This document shows positions 4,455-36,541 of a DNA stretch of 44,628 bases, one piece after another; within the stretch, counting starts at the first letter, position 1; each line of letters opens with the position of its first letter. This stretch comes from Candidatus Heimdallarchaeota archaeon. Its GTDB lineage: Archaea; Asgardarchaeota; Heimdallarchaeia; JABLTI01. The position numbers were made by a program, and so were the translations under genes. Below the pieces are notes generated by a model. It saw only the letters and a list, made by a program, of their open reading frames with translations. It ran no database searches and was not told where the DNA came from. Location: assembly GCA_019056785.1 (NCBI GenBank), contig DXJV01000069.1:1-44628 (forward strand). The letters are read 5' to 3'.

Positions 4455-5315
4455 TCATTTTTCTATCCAACTAATAATATAGCGCTTTAAATGGGATTTC
4501 TCGTTCTCTTTTTCCGCTATTTTCTGCCAAGAGCCTTTTATATTCTGTTCTTGCACACATAAATCGAAATGACATAAAGCAATTCCAATGTCAAGAAGTT
4601 TTAATTTCGGAAACTTTGTTGGAGTAATCTTTTCTGTTGTTTCAATATAAAAGTGGAACATTTTCTCATCCTTTATAATGCGCCATGGCTGTGAATTGCG
4701 ACTCGAGGGCGCCCAGCGAACCATTTCAAGAGTTTCAGAAAACTTTCCCGCGGCTTCTCGTGAAAGAGTATGGAAGAAATCTTTCTGAAAGAAAAAGTGT
4801 TTCCAACTTTTCCTGCGTTTAGATCTAATTGCAAGAGAAATTATTGAGTCTCTTATTCCTGTTGTATTTGTTGGATAACCAACGGGAGAAATAGCTGGAA
4901 TTATTTCGTCGTTTTTTAATTCAATGACTTTTGCAAGGTAATCATTACGAAAAGTTTGTCCAAGCCAACAAGTGCCCAAATCAAGTTCTGTGGCTTTTAA
5001 AATTACTTGCTCAAAAGTATACCCATAATCAATAACTGTTTCTGGAGTTGCTTGGGGGATGACGCCAACGAGAAACATCTTGGCCCCACGTACCATTCGA
5101 TAAGTAAGTTTATTGCTATCCGGAATTTCATCAGGGAGTTTTACAAGTTTATACTTAATTTCAGTGTTGAAAAGTCCCTTCAGGGGTTTTTTGATTGCGT
5201 GTTCTAAAATCCTCAAAGTTTGTTTCTTAATCGGAACGTTTTGATATTTCCTGCATGATGAGCGTTTTCGAATTATATTAAAAACTGATTCTTGAAATTT
5301 CATTTGGTCATTCAC
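4455..5315 (-). CDS. Nitroreductase family protein (two-domain type)
   Basis: IRKRSSCRKY, ATELDLGTCWLG, RWAPSSRNSQPWR, LDIGIALCHF motifs. The start may be the ATG at 5303. Confidence 0.9.
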   Translation of the reverse strand: MNDQMKFQESVFNIIRKRSSCRKYQNVPIKKQTLRILEHAIKKPLKGLFNTEIKYKLVKLPDEIPDSNKLTYRMVRGAKMFLVGVIPQATPETVIDYGYTFEQVILKATELDLGTCWLGQTFRNDYLAKVIELKNDEIIPAISPVGYPTNTTGIRDSIISLAIRSKRRKSWKHFFFQKDFFHTLSREAAGKFSETLEMVRWAPSSRNSQPWRIIKDEKMFHFYIETTEKITPTKFPKLKLLDIGIALCHFDLCVQEQNIKGSWQKIAEKENEKSHLKRYIISWIEK

Positions 5316-5447
5316 AAAACAAGAAGTGCCCCTTGGCTATTTAAAACCTCACTTTTAATCGTTTAGAACATACGGCTTTCTCAGAATTGATTATTGTATA
5401 ACCTCTTTTTCATTTATTCTCGGAAATTGTTAAAGACTCAAGAATAG

Positions 5448-7166
5448 TCAAGAGAATTCTCTCGTCATAAATTTTTTTCGAAATTCCTCCTTTAAGAGTT
5501 GTTTGGTGATTAAAATTGACATGTCATTTCTGTTTTTATTAACCGAAAGGCGAAGAATAGGAGAGGTTTGTTCTCGTTTATAGTAGAACACCTTAAAGAA
5601 ACCTGCAGTGCCTTCACTATATGGTTCTCTTCTTCCGAGGCTCACTATCAATTCTTTCTCGCCATCGTTATCAAGATCAAAAGTGTCAACATCCCAATTA
5701 AAGGAGTCATTCCCCCATAAAACAATCGGTCGAATGGTTGAAATATTGAATCGTGAATGGGAGAGAGGAATAATTCCAAAGTCATCCCCTAAATTTTGAA
5801 AAATTACAATGTCGCCCCAAGTATTTGCCCCTTGACGGGTTCGCATAGCATAGATAGCAATGTCATCAAAACCATCTTTATTATAATCCCATGGTTGAGG
5901 ACTAGAGTATACCCATATGTAGGGATAGGTCCAATCAAAATTAAAATCGATTGTTCTTATCGTCCAACTGGCACCTTCTTTTACAAAATAGAGGAAACCA
6001 TTCAGTCCTATGCCTTCAACTGCCACAGTATTTGCCAAGCCAAAAACAATTGCTTCTGCACCATTGGTAGCATTTCCATCGAAATTCCCTCGATTGGCTG
6101 GAAAAAGTTCAACACCACCCATCCACCAGCTTTGTTCCTCTTGAAAAGCATAGGTGTGGTTGACATCAGCTGCTACTCTGCGATAAAAAACAATTTTACT
6201 GGCAAGAATGGCATTATGTTCATCACGAAAGGTTCCCCACATCATTAAGTCTAACCCTGGACTATCATCATAGAGATTAGTTACCGTAGCTCGTGCTTGT
6301 AATCTATCTGAGAGGTTCATTTCAGCCGGGTCCCAATACAACTCTCGGTAACTATCTGAAAGGTTATCATAAAGCCAAAAACGTTTCAGGTAAAAGGGTT
6401 CTTGATTGTGAGGTTCAGCTCCTATAATGGTTTTCGTAACAAATCGATAATCAAATGGATAAAATCCCTCTTCAGGTTGCTCTAGAAGAAAGACATGTCC
6501 AAAATATTTGTTATCATTAAAACGATTACATGTCACCAAAATGTGATAACCATCCTTTAAGGGGCCGGAAAAAGAACGCGGAACAAAAGAGGGAATAATC
6601 ATTATCCCACCAGTTAAGTTTTCAGCCCAAGCGCCATAAAATAGCGGTTTTGGCTCCCACAAAGACCCTGCGTTTGGATCAATATAGATTACTCCGGGAA
6701 AGGGTCTACTTGAATAAGCATGATTTGGCGGGTAGTTTATAATATCAGCCATTGTAACGATCTCTTGCAAACCATCACCATCAATATCCTCATCAACTAT
6801 CCCTTTAACAGGCCAGGTATAGGACTGATTGCCTGAAAAGTCAAATCGGGGGTGAAGGGTTTCTACTCCCCAGTCACCTTGCTCATTCTGATAATGACGA
6901 AAAATTCCAGCAACACCATGAGAATAACTCCCAATCATTTCAAGAGTGCCATTGCCGGTGAAATCTCCAAAGCTAACTGTTTGCTGAAAATCATCCTTCA
7001 TTGGTACACCTATCTCGTGCCAATCCTCAGGCGGTTCCTGCCATGGTCCATTAGCCGTTGTTGAAGTTTTATTATGGAAAGTCAAATAACCAATTAAAAC
7101 GCCTAAACTAGTACAACTTAAACTCAAAATAATAACTATTGAAAAAAATTGTTGCCGGTTCATCAT
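5448..7166 (-). CDS. N-terminally anchored FG-GAP/VCBS-repeat (beta-propeller) surface protein
   Basis: Hydrophobic N-terminal segment. Repeated Ca-binding-type loops GDFTGNGTLE, EDIDGDGLQE, WDYNKDGFDD, FDLDNDGEKE. Many NxS/T sequons. Confidence 0.8.
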   Translation of the reverse strand: MMNRQQFFSIVIILSLSCTSLGVLIGYLTFHNKTSTTANGPWQEPPEDWHEIGVPMKDDFQQTVSFGDFTGNGTLEMIGSYSHGVAGIFRHYQNEQGDWGVETLHPRFDFSGNQSYTWPVKGIVDEDIDGDGLQEIVTMADIINYPPNHAYSSRPFPGVIYIDPNAGSLWEPKPLFYGAWAENLTGGIMIIPSFVPRSFSGPLKDGYHILVTCNRFNDNKYFGHVFLLEQPEEGFYPFDYRFVTKTIIGAEPHNQEPFYLKRFWLYDNLSDSYRELYWDPAEMNLSDRLQARATVTNLYDDSPGLDLMMWGTFRDEHNAILASKIVFYRRVAADVNHTYAFQEEQSWWMGGVELFPANRGNFDGNATNGAEAIVFGLANTVAVEGIGLNGFLYFVKEGASWTIRTIDFNFDWTYPYIWVYSSPQPWDYNKDGFDDIAIYAMRTRQGANTWGDIVIFQNLGDDFGIIPLSHSRFNISTIRPIVLWGNDSFNWDVDTFDLDNDGEKELIVSLGRREPYSEGTAGFFKVFYYKREQTSPILRLSVNKNRNDMSILITKQLLKEEFRKKFMTREFS

Positions 7167-32366: not shown

Positions 32367-35062
32367 GAATAAGAGAAAAAATAATGGTGACTTTTATCAT
32401 TTTATTGATAATGCCACCTGTAATTATGATCTCTGTTTCAAGCATTAGGATTTCACGAATCTCGAAAAATAATGCAAGCGATTCTGCTGAAGCCTTACTA
32501 TCGGAAGAGTTGGAACATCTCCAAAGGCTAGCAACAGACGAGTCACAGAAGATCAATGAATTGTTCAGCCAAATCGTCGCAGAAGTGACGATGCTGGATA
32601 CTTTTGCTGAGCAATTGTTTAACGGTGAAATAGCCATTGAACCGTATCGTTCTTACTGGTGGGATGATGCTGCCGAATTGGCAGAAACCGGGCGGAGCAT
32701 ACCGGGGCAACATTATAATGCAACCTACGACTCAAACATTTCCTTTGATGTTAGTTGTTATTATATGCCCCGAGACAAAATTAGTAGTGCTCTTGGTGGA
32801 GATCCGTTTAACTGGACGCCTAAATTGGAATATTATCTGAACGTTTCGTCAAATCTTGATATAGCGTTTAAAAACATGCATCTCGCCAATCCAAACTACA
32901 TTTGGATTTATGCCGCCTTTGCCGACCCAACCTATTCGCTTTTTAGGAATTATCCTTATGATTCAATGGCTTGGACCCAAGAAGATGAAAATGGTAATCC
33001 AGTTTCCCCTGAAGATGATTGGGACCCACTCGAATATGATTGGTACACAAATGCTGCTAATATTGTAGATAACAGCACTGCGTTTACTTCACCATATTTT
33101 GATCCCATAGGTTTGATCATTTCTGTAGGGCGACCGGTACGTTATACTAATGGGACACTCATTGGTGTTGTTAGTGTTGACATTACCATTGAAACAATGC
33201 AACAGAGCATTCTTAATCTTGATGTAAGTAAGAATGGTTATGCATTCTTGGTTGATGAGAATGGTGACACTATTACTCATCCTGACTTGGTCAACGAATT
33301 TATTCCGATTATCGATTTAGAAATGACAGATGCATCTGCAACAGAACGAACAGCTTTTCAAGATATTATTAATGATATGCGCCTTGGTTTAACAGGACAA
33401 GAGAGCTTCACGAAGAACGGCGCCAAATGGTACATTTCTTATAGTCCAGTAAGCACTACAAAATATTCCCTTGCCTTAGTTGTTCCAGAAGATGACATTC
33501 TTGAGCCTGTTTACCAATTGCGAGATGACATTCTTAGAAGAAGCTTGAACAATGTTCTAGTTTCAATTGGTTTATTGGTTTTAGCCTTTATTTTCATTGT
33601 CGTTATTTCTGTGAACGTTTCGCGCCGAACGGTGAAACCAATTCAAGATTTCATCGACTTCTCAGAGCGCATTGCTAAAGGAGACTTGTCTACTGAACTT
33701 GATGAGGATAAAATTCTCCCAAGAGAAATTAAGGGATTGCATTCGGCTTTAGATGGACTCCTCACAGCACTGCGGTTTGGAAACACAGACTATTATGGAG
33801 GCAATCTAGATAGAGCATATAATAACTATCTTAAAGCCTTGAAACTGTTCGAAACAACCAACGATGAAGCCGGTATTGGTGTTTGTCTAAACAATCTTGG
33901 CAATGTCTACCGAGAGTGGGGTGACTTAAACCAAGCAAAGGATTTCTATGCAAAAGCTATTGTGGTTGCTGAAAAGCTTGGAGAACGTCCTTCTCTTGCT
34001 TCGCGCTATAATAACTACGGCTTAGTACTCCTTGATTCAGGAGATTATGAGGGCGCAAAAGACTATTTGGAAAAAGCTCTGGCAATAAATGAAGAGCTTA
34101 ACAGAGTTCGAGGGCGCGTTCTCTGTCTAAACAATCTCGGTCTTGTACACTTCAAATTAGGCAATGTGAAACTTGCCTTCAAGTATTATCAAGAAGCCCT
34201 CAAGTTGGCAAAAGATGACGACTTCCTTAGAGGTGTTGCGCACAGTCACTTGAATTTAGCAATGTTCTATCTTGAACAGTACGATGTTCCAAGTGCAAGG
34301 TCTCATCTAGAACAAGCATTAGAAAATGCGAAATTGGTTAACGATGTTTTGCTTGTCGAAGAGATACTCCAGCGCGCACAGATGATTGACCGTGATCTCG
34401 ATGACCATTCCACTCGAGAACAAATACAAACAATATTAGACCAGCTACGTGGTGGTACAGCTCCAAGAAAAACAGTACTCTATATTCTTGACTACAGCGG
34501 CTCAATGAGCGGCTCGCGTAATCGAGCATCTATTCGTGGCTCTCTCGACCTTTTGAAAACGGCTATCAAAGACAAAGACTCTGTTGGTATTATTACGTTC
34601 CATACAAGGAGTCAGGTTGTTTTACCCATTACTCCAGTTAAAAACCAGCGCACAAATATTACCAATACATTCAAAATGCTTAGTCGACCAAATGGCAATA
34701 CAGCCCTTTGGGATGCTGTTTATGATGGTATTGTGCAACTTGAGCAACTAGGTTCAGGCCAAAAATGGTTAGTCGTTTTAACTGATGGTGAAGACAACTC
34801 GAGTCAACGAACTTCTCGTGATGTGATTCGAAAACTCGAGAAGATGAAAGCCAAACCCAATCTTGTTGTTATAAGCGTTGGGGACATCGGTCAAGACGAA
34901 GCCGTTCTTATGAGCTTATGTGATGCAGTTGATGGAACGTTTATCAAGATCTCCGGAACAAGAAGTGTCCATAAGGAGATTGAGAAAGCGTTCAAAACAG
35001 TAGGACAATTAATGTCCCAGGCCCAGGTCTCAGTTGAAGGACTGGTGCTCGACGATCTATGA
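32363..35062 (+). CDS. Transmembrane receptor: TM-dCache-TM-HAMP-TPR-vWA (MIDAS)
   Basis: TM at about aa 7-26 and 397-417. Cache motifs DWY...FTSPYFD...GVVSVDI...GYAFLVDENG..ITHP. HAMP VKPIQDF...IAKGDLS...EI..L..ALD. TPRs CLNNLGNVY, YNNYGLV, CLNNLGLV. vWA LDYSGSMSG, GNTALWDA, VLTDGEDN. Confidence 0.88.
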   Translation: MRIREKIMVTFIILLIMPPVIMISVSSIRISRISKNNASDSAEALLSEELEHLQRLATDESQKINELFSQIVAEVTMLDTFAEQLFNGEIAIEPYRSYWWDDAAELAETGRSIPGQHYNATYDSNISFDVSCYYMPRDKISSALGGDPFNWTPKLEYYLNVSSNLDIAFKNMHLANPNYIWIYAAFADPTYSLFRNYPYDSMAWTQEDENGNPVSPEDDWDPLEYDWYTNAANIVDNSTAFTSPYFDPIGLIISVGRPVRYTNGTLIGVVSVDITIETMQQSILNLDVSKNGYAFLVDENGDTITHPDLVNEFIPIIDLEMTDASATERTAFQDIINDMRLGLTGQESFTKNGAKWYISYSPVSTTKYSLALVVPEDDILEPVYQLRDDILRRSLNNVLVSIGLLVLAFIFIVVISVNVSRRTVKPIQDFIDFSERIAKGDLSTELDEDKILPREIKGLHSALDGLLTALRFGNTDYYGGNLDRAYNNYLKALKLFETTNDEAGIGVCLNNLGNVYREWGDLNQAKDFYAKAIVVAEKLGERPSLASRYNNYGLVLLDSGDYEGAKDYLEKALAINEELNRVRGRVLCLNNLGLVHFKLGNVKLAFKYYQEALKLAKDDDFLRGVAHSHLNLAMFYLEQYDVPSARSHLEQALENAKLVNDVLLVEEILQRAQMIDRDLDDHSTREQIQTILDQLRGGTAPRKTVLYILDYSGSMSGSRNRASIRGSLDLLKTAIKDKDSVGIITFHTRSQVVLPITPVKNQRTNITNTFKMLSRPNGNTALWDAVYDGIVQLEQLGSGQKWLVVLTDGEDNSSQRTSRDVIRKLEKMKAKPNLVVISVGDIGQDEAVLMSLCDAVDGTFIKISGTRSVHKEIEKAFKTVGQLMSQAQVSVEGLVLDDL

Positions 35063-35074
35063 GGTGATGAACAA

Positions 35075-36541
35075 ATGGGACTGAAAAAATTCATACAAAG
35101 TAGAAGCATCAGAACCAATATCATGGTTAGTTTTGTGCTCCTCTCACTATTATTCATTGGTGGAACTGGCGGGTTATCTTATCTTTTGTTTAAGCGTGCC
35201 GGCCAGGAAACGATAAGCGATAGCACAAGTGCTCTTGAGAAGCAAATAACTGAAAATATCAAAATTACTGCGGAAAAGAATGCAGAAATCATCTTTCAAA
35301 AGCTCTCCAATGCAGAATCGATGGTTAGATATGAGGCTTCTAATTTAGAATACCTCTTCTCTGATGAGAACCGCTTTGGACCACGATATACTTACTATGA
35401 CTATTGGTTTGAATACAATCTCTCAAACACACCGGCAGATACACATTACGATCCTTCTTACGGCATTCAAGTGAGTTATGATTATGCCAGCTATTATTTT
35501 GAGGGTTCAAATTCAACTCACTATTTACCCCAGAATTCCTTACAGAACAAAACCCTCAACACTGTTGCTGCGATGGATTATGTTTTTAAGGAGATCCATA
35601 ACAATGCGCCTGAATTCCGCTGGCTCTATATTGCCTTCGAATTGGCTGGTATCGATTTGTTCATCAATTACCCCGGTAGTGTTCTCTTGGGTGATGATGC
35701 AGAACGAAACAACGAACCTTATGAACCACATTTGGAGCCGTGGTATATAGATGTCAAAAGCGGTGACGGCCGGATTGTTTTCACCGAGCCTTATTTTGAC
35801 GAATTTGATGGTGTGCCCCTGATAACAATTGGTCGCGTGGCAAAATTCAGCAACGGTACAGATATTGGGGTGATTTGTGGCGACATCTCCATTGAAGACA
35901 TGGTGAATAAAATTGTTAATATCACTATCTTAGAGACAGGTTATGCCGCACTCATTAATTCCGATGGCTTGGTGGTTGCTCATCCAGAGTCTGCGCCGTC
36001 AATTGCTGACCCTAACTTCCCCTATATAAATGAAGTGGAAGTGAATTCAGACGACACATCAGCTCTCAATGCAACAGCGCTTTCCTTGATAACCTCTGGT
36101 GGTTCGGGGATTATTAAATACACCCGCAACGGCCAGGAACGATTCCTCGCTTATCAACCTGTAGGAAAAGGCGACTACATTAGCTTAATTATCCTCCCGG
36201 TCGATGAAGCGTTGGCCGGAATTGAACCAGTAGTCACAAGAATGAACAATGGTATTCGCACAAACCAAAACACCATTTGGATAATTGTTGCATCCAGTTT
36301 TGTAATAGGTATCACTGTAGGGCTAATTTTGACTGCATATATTACACGACCATTTACGCATCTTATTCAAGTGGCACGCTCGTTATCCACAAGGCGCGCA
36401 AGGAAAGACATAGAGCAAGGCTTGATGATGAAGATCGACCAACGGCTTTTAGAGAGCAACGACGAACTTGGCGAACTTACGAGAGCCTTTAAAGGCATGT
36501 TAGAATCGGTACAAGAAGCCGAACGGGAGAAAAACCATTAA
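35075..36541 (+). CDS. TM-dCache-TM-HAMP protein with no output domain
   Basis: Two TMs. PWY...FTEPYFD...GVICGDI...GYAALINSDGLVVAHP. HAMP ITRPFTHL...NDELGELTRAFKGM, then stop. GAGGTGA SD overlaps the previous stop. Confidence 0.88.
   Translation: MGLKKFIQSRSIRTNIMVSFVLLSLLFIGGTGGLSYLLFKRAGQETISDSTSALEKQITENIKITAEKNAEIIFQKLSNAESMVRYEASNLEYLFSDENRFGPRYTYYDYWFEYNLSNTPADTHYDPSYGIQVSYDYASYYFEGSNSTHYLPQNSLQNKTLNTVAAMDYVFKEIHNNAPEFRWLYIAFELAGIDLFINYPGSVLLGDDAERNNEPYEPHLEPWYIDVKSGDGRIVFTEPYFDEFDGVPLITIGRVAKFSNGTDIGVICGDISIEDMVNKIVNITILETGYAALINSDGLVVAHPESAPSIADPNFPYINEVEVNSDDTSALNATALSLITSGGSGIIKYTRNGQERFLAYQPVGKGDYISLIILPVDEALAGIEPVVTRMNNGIRTNQNTIWIIVASSFVIGITVGLILTAYITRPFTHLIQVARSLSTRRARKDIEQGLMMKIDQRLLESNDELGELTRAFKGMLESVQEAEREKNH

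Follow-up and report, generated by a model that had tools for sequence, protein, structure and literature searches.

A putative kinase-free receptor pair in a Heimdall-group archaeon and its family-level likeness to the Cache region of alpha2delta and CACHD1

Two adjacent genes of a Candidatus Heimdallarchaeota archaeon, here called gene 2 (protein P0001) and gene 3 (protein P0002), are best explained, with a probability that we put at about 0.6 for the explanation as a whole, as a kinase-free pair of amine receptors whose sensors belong to a Cache group common with the calcium-channel protein alpha2delta and with CACHD1. As part of the same explanation, the von Willebrand factor A (vWA) domain of gene 2 would be an independent cytoplasmic addition, unrelated to the vWA of alpha2delta in particular. 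Both genes lie in the window, by which is meant the whole stretch of DNA that was analysed (44,628 nucleotides of contig DXJV01000069.1, assembly GCA_019056785.1). An initial annotation of this DNA, made from the sequence without database searches, had proposed that the two sensors resemble the Cache region of alpha2delta/CACHD1, that the operon holds the alpha2delta "parts list" of two double-Cache (dCache) domains and one vWA with a metal ion-dependent adhesion site (MIDAS), and that it is a possible relative of the alpha2delta precursor. At the level of the protein family, the evidence that the likeness to alpha2delta is real is strong; what the window proteins themselves do and do not have in common with alpha2delta is a separate matter, and the two levels are kept apart in what follows.

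Architecture of the receptor pair

In gene 2, a first transmembrane segment (TM1, residues about 8–27) is followed by an extracellular dCache_1 domain (about 31–395), a second transmembrane segment (TM2, about 396–418) and a helical linker, and the intracellular part consists of a TPR array (about 466–690; TPR_12, 96 bits) and a vWA domain (705–862). The latter is matched by Pfam VWA (PF00092) at 38–41 bits against a cut-off of 23.8, and its MIDAS residues are D710, S712, S714, T780 and D808. Gene 3 has the same beginning, with TM1 at about 17–39, an extracellular dCache_1 at about 40–400 and TM2 at about 401–423, followed by a HAMP-like segment (419–481) and by no output domain that a Pfam scan could find. 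Since the two hydrophobic segments bracket the Cache domain in each protein, the predicted topology has the sensor extracellular and, in gene 2, the TPR-vWA arm intracellular. Pfam dCache_1 (PF02743; cut-off 45 bits) scores 63–66 bits on gene 2 and 73 bits on gene 3, and these are the sole dCache_1 matches in the genome.

The absence of a recognizable enzymatic output appears to extend to the wider family. No MCPsignal domain and no HisKA plus HATPase_c pair were found in gene 3 or among the best 25 of the 36 Pfam families matched by gene 2, and when the tails of the 116 top hits are scanned, no chemoreceptor, kinase or cyclase output is among the 25 most frequent families. What these tails do contain is HAMP, in 43 of the 116, and TPR with vWA, in 14–16. 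On gene 3 itself HAMP (PF00672) reaches 24.1 bits, slightly below its cut-off of 25, and it gives no match in residues 400–480 of gene 2.

By BLASTP the sensors prove to be paralogues of each other (27% identity over 407 columns, E 1e-39), and AlphaFold models them with good confidence: the predicted local distance difference test (pLDDT) value is 83.5 for gene 3, the sensor being mostly above 90, and 90.8 for residues 1–420 of gene 2. In both models the same extra piece of about 60 residues separates the long helix 1 from the generic Cache helix. This extension consists of a short helix with a meander of three strands, these being E124–126, E131–134 and E139–142 in gene 3, while in gene 2 a short helix, three short strands and a further helix are seen. 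The insert-bearing N-terminal Cache segment that had been read from the sequence of both sensors is thus borne out by the two models, and the amino acid strings quoted for it are present in the translations (P0001, about 118–308; P0002, about 125–224).

Among the closest known systems are the dCache_1 sensors of bacteria and archaea. The amino-acid chemoreceptors PctA, PctB, PctC, Mlp24, Mlp37 and CtaA and the amine-type Methanosarcina sensors 3LIB and 3LI8 have the fold of the window sensors (Z 17–22), the same succession of transmembrane segment, sensor and transmembrane segment, followed by HAMP (in gene 3 by the HAMP-like segment), and the same W, Y, Y and D in the pocket. They differ in being without the extension of about 60 residues, the sensor profile matching such proteins from position about 99–168 onward. 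Their outputs, moreover, are chemoreceptor, kinase or cyclase domains, whereas the window pair has a TPR-vWA arm or nothing.

Relationship to the Cache region of alpha2delta

Pfam VWA_N (PF08399; curated cut-off 34.7 bits) represents the first part of a dCache_1 domain (Gumerov et al., PMC8915833). In a six-frame search of 400 Asgard genomes, VWA_N was matched in 25 genomes at E<=0.01, in 5 of them above the curated cut-off, whereas none of 14 control genomes gave a match at E<=0.01, although 7 of these contain dCache_1, and none of seven bacterial chemoreceptors gave one at E<=1. The matches above the cut-off are Cache-HAMP proteins of 462–486 amino acids (aa) whose genes adjoin TPR-vWA genes; they form another Asgard family and are orthologues of gene 3 (full-length BLASTP against P0002, E 1e-47 to 1e-57). 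By hmmscan, VWA_N scores 38.5, 37.2 and 34.9 bits on three of these orthologues (L001–L003), and the alignments extend to model positions 18–40.

A profile, A4, was built from the N-terminal segment of 11 gene-3 orthologues chosen by their VWA_N match. This profile is biased, because its members were picked by that match; they are nevertheless a single orthologous family and not chance picks. Against the PDB, A4 finds CACHD1 at E 8.8e-14 and alpha2delta-1 at E 2.8e-9 (residues 106–256), the best bacterial structure being found at 2.2e-4. Against 1.84 billion proteins it retrieves 909 at E<=0.001, and its top 150 include gene-3-like proteins, gene-2-like proteins, Asgard proteins with a vWA inside the Cache domain (vWA-in-Cache proteins) and eukaryotic proteins of the alpha2delta/CACHD1 type. 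The eukaryotic matches, from Ploeotia, Asterias, Sycon, Capitella and Saccostrea, score 68–90 bits (E 1e-14 to 1e-20) and carry VWA_N, VWA and dCache_1, two of them also VGCC_alpha2. In this search the nearest labelled matches outside the Asgard archaea are eukaryotic and not bacterial.

Structure comparison gives a similar picture. With VIA-align, alpha2delta-1 is aligned with 283–305 residues of the gene-3 model (Z 20–23; root-mean-square deviation 3.0–3.7) and CACHD1 with 289, and with 279–300 residues of the gene-2 model at 26% identity (alpha2delta-1, Z 19–22). Bacterial Cache domains reach similar Z values over only 215–250 residues of gene 3 and 216–251 of gene 2. The excess of 50–60 residues is the size of the extension, and of the solved structures alpha2delta-1 covers the greatest part of both models. 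Alpha2delta-1 and CACHD1 (PDB 8if4, 7mix, 5gjv and 8s7c/9eq6) have in common with the window sensors the double-Cache fold, the order of the core motifs as far as the W-Y motif in the pocket and, to judge from the aligned lengths, perhaps the enlarged N-terminal part. On the other hand, alpha2delta and CACHD1 differ from the window proteins in several respects: the window sensors are without an inserted vWA and without a second, nested dCache; the carboxylate-binding arginine of the pocket is replaced in both; and the window proteins are of the prokaryotic type, with transmembrane segment, sensor, transmembrane segment and, in gene 3, a HAMP-like segment, and fall in a separate clade.

An alternative explanation is that genes 2 and 3 code for ordinary dCache_1 sensors, that their likeness to alpha2delta is the general Cache homology known since 2000 and refined in 2022, and that the extension is a lineage-specific insertion whose place coincides by chance with one where alpha2delta, too, has additional residues. 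This we consider unlikely, while regarding it as the most serious of the rival explanations. It is opposed by the results just given, namely the gene-3 orthologues that exceed the VWA_N threshold with alignments extending to model positions 18–40, the eukaryotic rather than bacterial neighbours of the orthologue profile and the longer alignment of alpha2delta-1, and also by a tree of core columns that unites the Asgard and eukaryotic clades (see below). Its strength lies in the window proteins themselves, where a number of results weigh against the reading that we prefer. VWA_N gives no match at E<=10, either on the two window proteins or in a six-frame search of the genome, so that of the two profiles proposed as a check dCache_1 recognizes both proteins and VWA_N neither. 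When the extension alone is compared between profiles, the probabilities are at noise level (0.8%, 10% and 1.1%), and with an extension-only HMMER model the median score is -1.0 bits for eukaryotic proteins and -3.7 for shuffled sequences, which is taken as equal. When 46 near homologues are used to make a profile of the insert, a search of the PDB yields only noise and no alpha2delta. A eukaryotic core profile scores a median of 19 bits on the gene-3 family near the window and 16 on the corresponding gene-2 family, as compared with 19, and a maximum of 36, on the seven bacterial chemoreceptors. Finally, the structural match of the extension has been judged from aligned lengths and not residue by residue.

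On the whole, the evidence that the window's own sequences provide is modest. When a profile is made from 15 eukaryotic VWA_N regions and compared by hhalign, P0002 reaches 92% (E 7e-7) and P0001 90% (E 1.5e-6), and the family profiles reach 93% and 96%. A Pseudoalteromonas chemoreceptor reaches 97% in this comparison, which again speaks for ordinary sensors; its alignment is confined to the generic core (template columns 119–187), whereas the Asgard alignments begin earlier, at column 76–80. The two longer extension-only alignments (29 and 31 columns) have the same register. VWA_N weakly matches 12 of the 46 near homologues, at best with E 0.0018. The full near-family profile finds alpha2delta in the PDB only through the Cache part that follows the vWA, its best matches being Methanosarcina (3LIB first) and bacterial sensors, a result that likewise speaks for ordinary sensors. 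The motifs of alpha2delta-1 that the initial annotation had given prove accurate, phmmer aligning P0002 126–227 with alpha2delta-1 152–247 in the order that had been described, at only 15.5 bits (E 0.05 to 0.14). The order of the motifs, and the likeness of the N-terminal Cache segment taken as a whole, therefore stand; the matches inside the insert are not significant, since comparisons of the extension alone are at noise level. Judged by sequence, the supported match is that of the Cache core, which is common to bacteria too, and on the eukaryotic profile the window proteins do no better than bacterial chemoreceptors for amino acids.

The vWA domain and the alpha2delta parts list

The inventory on which the parts-list idea was based, two dCache_1 domains and one MIDAS vWA, is right. 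The agreement is a coincidence of common modules, and it is superficial because the vWA of gene 2 is C-terminal and cytoplasmic. Two traits of alpha2delta and CACHD1 are missing: in neither sensor is a vWA found inside the first dCache_1, behind the W-Y motif of the pocket, the sensor profile being matched without interruption, and each chain has one dCache_1, a second one being absent. In the PDB, the best solved relatives of the gene-2 vWA are CLCA1 and ITIH4, and no alpha2delta is found at E<=0.001; with the vWA inserted in Asgard Cache proteins it has 26% identity (E 0.001).

A better counterpart of alpha2delta is provided by the Asgard vWA-in-Cache proteins (L027, L013, L017, P0232 and others), which belong to the same Cache group as the window sensors. 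In L027 (595 aa), L013 (601 aa) and L017 (639 aa) the Pfam order is VWA_N, VWA, dCache_1, and in these proteins of 590–640 aa the vWA is inserted at the same site as in eukaryotes, profile position about 191. They differ from genes 2 and 3 in having their own vWA at the alpha2delta position, in forming a clade of their own and in scoring a median of 58 bits on the eukaryotic profile, as compared with 16–19 for the families near the window. No such protein was found in the genome of the window (82.5% complete), in which L027 matches only genes 2 and 3.

These results bear on the proposal that the operon stands near the alpha2delta precursor and that its two dCache domains and vWA are the parts that were later joined. 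Two dCache_1 domains and one MIDAS vWA are indeed encoded on one strand with gaps of 12–35 nucleotides (nt), and the VWA_N link stands at family level; but the vWA lies in the cytoplasm behind TM2 and a TPR array, without special likeness to the vWA of alpha2delta or to that inserted in Asgard proteins, the eukaryotic clade falls outside the core clade of genes 2 and 3, and other Asgard genomes, with a vWA at the eukaryotic position, are better candidates for a precursor. The proposal is accordingly regarded as very improbable, the least likely of those considered here.

Trees, clades and distribution

A tree of the sensors was made from generic Cache columns, the extension being excluded, with a sensor profile of 96 seeds; support is given as ultrafast bootstrap / Shimodaira–Hasegawa-like approximate likelihood ratio test (SH-aLRT). 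Two thirds of the gene-3-like representative matches, six poorly covered eukaryotic rows and V_P0240 were excluded. The tree separates bacteria from the ingroup (100/98) and contains a eukaryotic clade (100/100), an Asgard vWA-inserted clade (100/99) and a core clade of genes 2 and 3 that holds both window sensors (91/97). On this tree the window sensors are paralogues from a duplication in the Asgard lineage, cousins of alpha2delta and not its forerunner. Cache phylogeny, which had been suggested as a check on the initial annotation, thus agrees with it in placing the sensors in one ingroup with eukaryotes, apart from bacteria, and departs from it in giving them a clade of their own that is not beside the eukaryotic one. 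Likewise, a relationship to the alpha2delta precursor can be upheld in the sense of membership in the same Cache group of Asgard archaea, eukaryotes and giant viruses, a group that would include alpha2delta/CACHD1 and the Asgard vWA-in-Cache family; within it, genes 2 and 3 would be diverged cousins rather than the precursor. Two features of the tree tell against this placement: the eukaryotic clade and the Asgard vWA-inserted clade are joined at only 35/66, and the root is a small sample of six bacterial plasmid chemoreceptors, a seventh (Burkholderia) having been excluded for want of a match. The scant bacterial sampling is the main weakness of the tree. Ordinary dCache_1 outgroups were sought in 151 Asgard genomes and none was found at E<=1e-25, an over-strict cut-off. 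Bacillus subtilis does reach dCache_1 at E<=1e-25, and Asgard Cache domains are all distant from the Pfam consensus.

The pair is matched in 125 of the 400 Asgard genomes (36 of 85 genera), usually as two adjacent matches, and the named homologues, of which one with 99% identity carries the label Candidatus Heimdallarchaeota, are all Asgard except for those on one contig. This contig, of 100,830 bp, carries homologues of both genes (P0021 and P0135, 60–71% identical) under the NCBI label "candidate division Zixibacteria"; a bacterial origin was set aside, the contig being probably a mis-binned Asgard one. Another side observation is that of a metagenome protein from the ENA (P0202, 993 aa), in which a vWA-inserted dCache (54–237 and 417–560) is followed by a complete dCache (583–889), so that the Cache domains are tandem and not nested; with the profile of gene-3 orthologues this protein reaches 187 bits.

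Published work holds that every eukaryotic dCache_1 protein carries the vWA insertion. Uninterrupted gene-3-like Cache proteins of 510–610 aa have been found here in jakobids (Stygiella, Andalucia), in chytrids (Nowakowskiella, Polyrhizophydium) and in giant viruses (Yasminevirus, Mimivirus LCMiAC02 and a 650-kb viral contig), the set comprising P0239, P0269, P0264, P0300, P0321, P0286, P0353 and P0241. The members of this set that were sampled in the tree nest within the Asgard gene-3 clade (100/99). That nesting, together with the patchy spread among Asgard genomes, could be explained if the likeness were due to genes that Asgard archaea had received from eukaryotes or giant viruses, or to the mis-binning of contigs. 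Such an origin seems improbable: there are four deep Asgard clades (gene 2, gene 3, vWA-inserted and tandem), gene order is conserved over contigs, as long as 3 Mb, from Heimdall, Hod, Thor, Loki and Hermod lineages, and the alpha2delta proteins of eukaryotes form a monophyletic clade that falls outside the Asgard ones.

With regard to the published history of the domain, the Cache region of eukaryotic alpha2delta has been derived from Bacteria by transfer, the vWA having been inserted at the stage of the last eukaryotic common ancestor, in a study in which Asgard archaea are unmentioned (Gumerov et al., PMC8915833). A literature search found no paper linking Asgard archaea with alpha2delta, with CACHD1 or with the combination of Cache and VWA. 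A different history, in which genes 2 and 3, the Asgard vWA-in-Cache proteins and alpha2delta/CACHD1 form one lineage that eukaryotes inherited from an Asgard ancestor, is put forward here as a tentative possibility, which we think somewhat doubtful.

Ligand pocket, gene neighbourhood and proposed function

The dCache_1AA motif for amino acid binding is Y-x4-R-x-W-Y, followed by Y and D, and its arginine binds the carboxylate of the ligand (Gumerov et al. 2022, PMC8915833). The motif is incomplete in both window sensors. The pocket of gene 3 consists of Y216, E221, W223, Y224, Y240 and D270, and that of gene 2 of W220, Y225, W227, Y228, Y245 and D273; the carboxylate-binding arginine is replaced by Glu221 and Tyr225, respectively, and the amine-binding half (W, Y, Y, D) is kept. 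The same position is E, D or Q in 12 of 12 near homologues of gene 3 and is not arginine in 10 of 10 near homologues of gene 2, and arginine is found in 6 of 6 orthologues of one further family (f19), in 21 of 22 members of the protist and virus group and in 9 of 16 eukaryotic proteins. On the reasoning of Cerna-Vargas et al. (10.1101/2023.04.06.535858), loss of this arginine marks a shift from amino acid to amine binding, and 3LIB is classed there as amine-binding. The ligand of the pair is suggested to be a decarboxylated amine, for example agmatine or a polyamine, because the arginine is lost and an arginine decarboxylase is conserved as a neighbour.

The neighbourhood in the window is given in Table 1. 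The AbrB/MazE-fold gene, gene 2, gene 3 and the 598-aa decarboxylase are on one strand and overlap or are closely spaced: the end of the first shares 4 nt with the start of gene 2, and 12 nt separate gene 2 from gene 3 and 35 nt gene 3 from the decarboxylase, which matches biosynthetic arginine decarboxylase in size and family. Thor, Loki and Hermod contigs carry, in this order, a histone deacetylase (HDAC)-like gene, a beta-propeller gene, gene 2, gene 3 and an ornithine/arginine decarboxylase; on a Hod/Heimdall chromosome the decarboxylase is upstream and divergent. In three of the former contigs (L034, L035 and L037) genes of the Hist_deacetyl family and QueC-like genes flank the block from propeller to decarboxylase. 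The Hist_deacetyl family includes acetylpolyamine amidohydrolases. The beta-propeller gene adjoins the receptor pair in other Asgard lineages in place of the TPR protein of the window.

Table 1. Genes and sensor parts in the region of the receptor pair (positions in the window)
Feature	Position	Strand	Domains or basis
Upstream TPR protein, 727 aa	29598..31781	+	Pfam TPR_12, 114 bits
AbrB/MazE-fold (SpoVT-AbrB) small protein, 147 aa	31923..32366	+	Pfam MazE_antitoxin, E 2.4e-9, two stretches
Gene 2 (P0001), 899 aa	32363..35062	+	TM1, dCache_1, TM2, helical linker, TPR array, vWA
Gene-2 sensor extension, residues about 88–152	32624..32818	+	Secondary structure of AlphaFold model
Gene-2 C-terminal vWA, MIDAS complete	34475..34948	+	Pfam VWA/VWA_2
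Gene 3 (P0002), 488 aa	35075..36541	+	TM1, dCache_1, TM2, HAMP-like segment
Gene-3 sensor extension, residues about 95–154	35357..35536	+	AlphaFold model
Pyridoxal phosphate (PLP)-dependent decarboxylase, 598 aa	36577..38373	+	Pfam Orn_Arg_deC_N, 91 bits
Second PLP-dependent Orn/DAP/Arg decarboxylase, 460 aa	38492..39874	+	Pfam Orn_Arg_deC_N, 105 bits, and Orn_DAP_Arg_deC

The proposal of an amine ligand has its own weak points, since it rests on one substituted residue and on gene order. The Arg-type locus L047 is without a decarboxylase, a sample of one, and because this is the single Arg-type locus examined the tie between loss of the arginine and a decarboxylase neighbour is a hint. At the same locus (genome G137, of the f19 Arg type) a beta-propeller-like gene stands directly after gene 3, and at positions 5186–6184, 2.6 kb from the pair, there is a gene for a fused Roadblock/LC7-Ras small GTPase of 331 aa.

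As for the pairing of the two proteins, a complex prediction of gene 2 (residues 1–420) with gene 3 scored 0.77, as compared with 0.00 for the best of three controls. Of 80 solved complexes 58 attain the mark set for this score, as do 2 of 110 mismatched pairs, counts that are approximate because alignments of our own were used. The runs agreed in at least 90% of contacts, the partner pLDDT was at least 81, and the predicted interface is formed by TM1, helix 1, the generic helix and TM2. This model supports, and does not show, a pairing of gene 2 with gene 3. The score may reflect likeness to known structures, because solved dCache dimers exist, and the prediction does not separate a heterodimer from homodimers; both points lower its value for the reading adopted here.

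With these reservations, the following mechanism can be proposed. Genes 2 and 3 would provide the Heimdall-group archaeon with a kinase-free transmembrane receptor pair, the paralogues pairing, like other dCache receptors, by way of TM1, helix 1 and TM2. A ligand bound in the membrane-distal pocket would send a signal to the TPR-vWA arm, and this arm, made of docking parts and not of enzymes, may in response gain or lose a cytoplasmic partner. A possible candidate for this partner is the 727-aa TPR protein encoded upstream; its C-terminal 130 residues or so are faintly longin-like (Fuz_longin_1, E 0.063). In other lineages the product of the neighbouring beta-propeller gene is a further candidate. 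The AbrB/MazE-fold protein may serve the operon as a transcription factor; its gene was not seen adjoining the receptor pair in the four other lineages examined.

Biological significance

The genome of this Heimdall-group archaeon holds two members of the Asgard side of the alpha2delta Cache family, and the window serves to delimit which traits are common with alpha2delta and which are not, the family as such being better displayed by other genomes. Were the inheritance from an Asgard ancestor true, the part of human alpha2delta that binds gabapentin would be archaeal in origin, contrary to the published bacterial transfer (PMC8915833), and uninterrupted receptors of the gene-3 type would survive in jakobids and chytrids. 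Finally, a receptor pair without enzymatic output beside an arginine decarboxylase would offer a test case for the sensing of amines by the closest archaeal relatives of eukaryotes.

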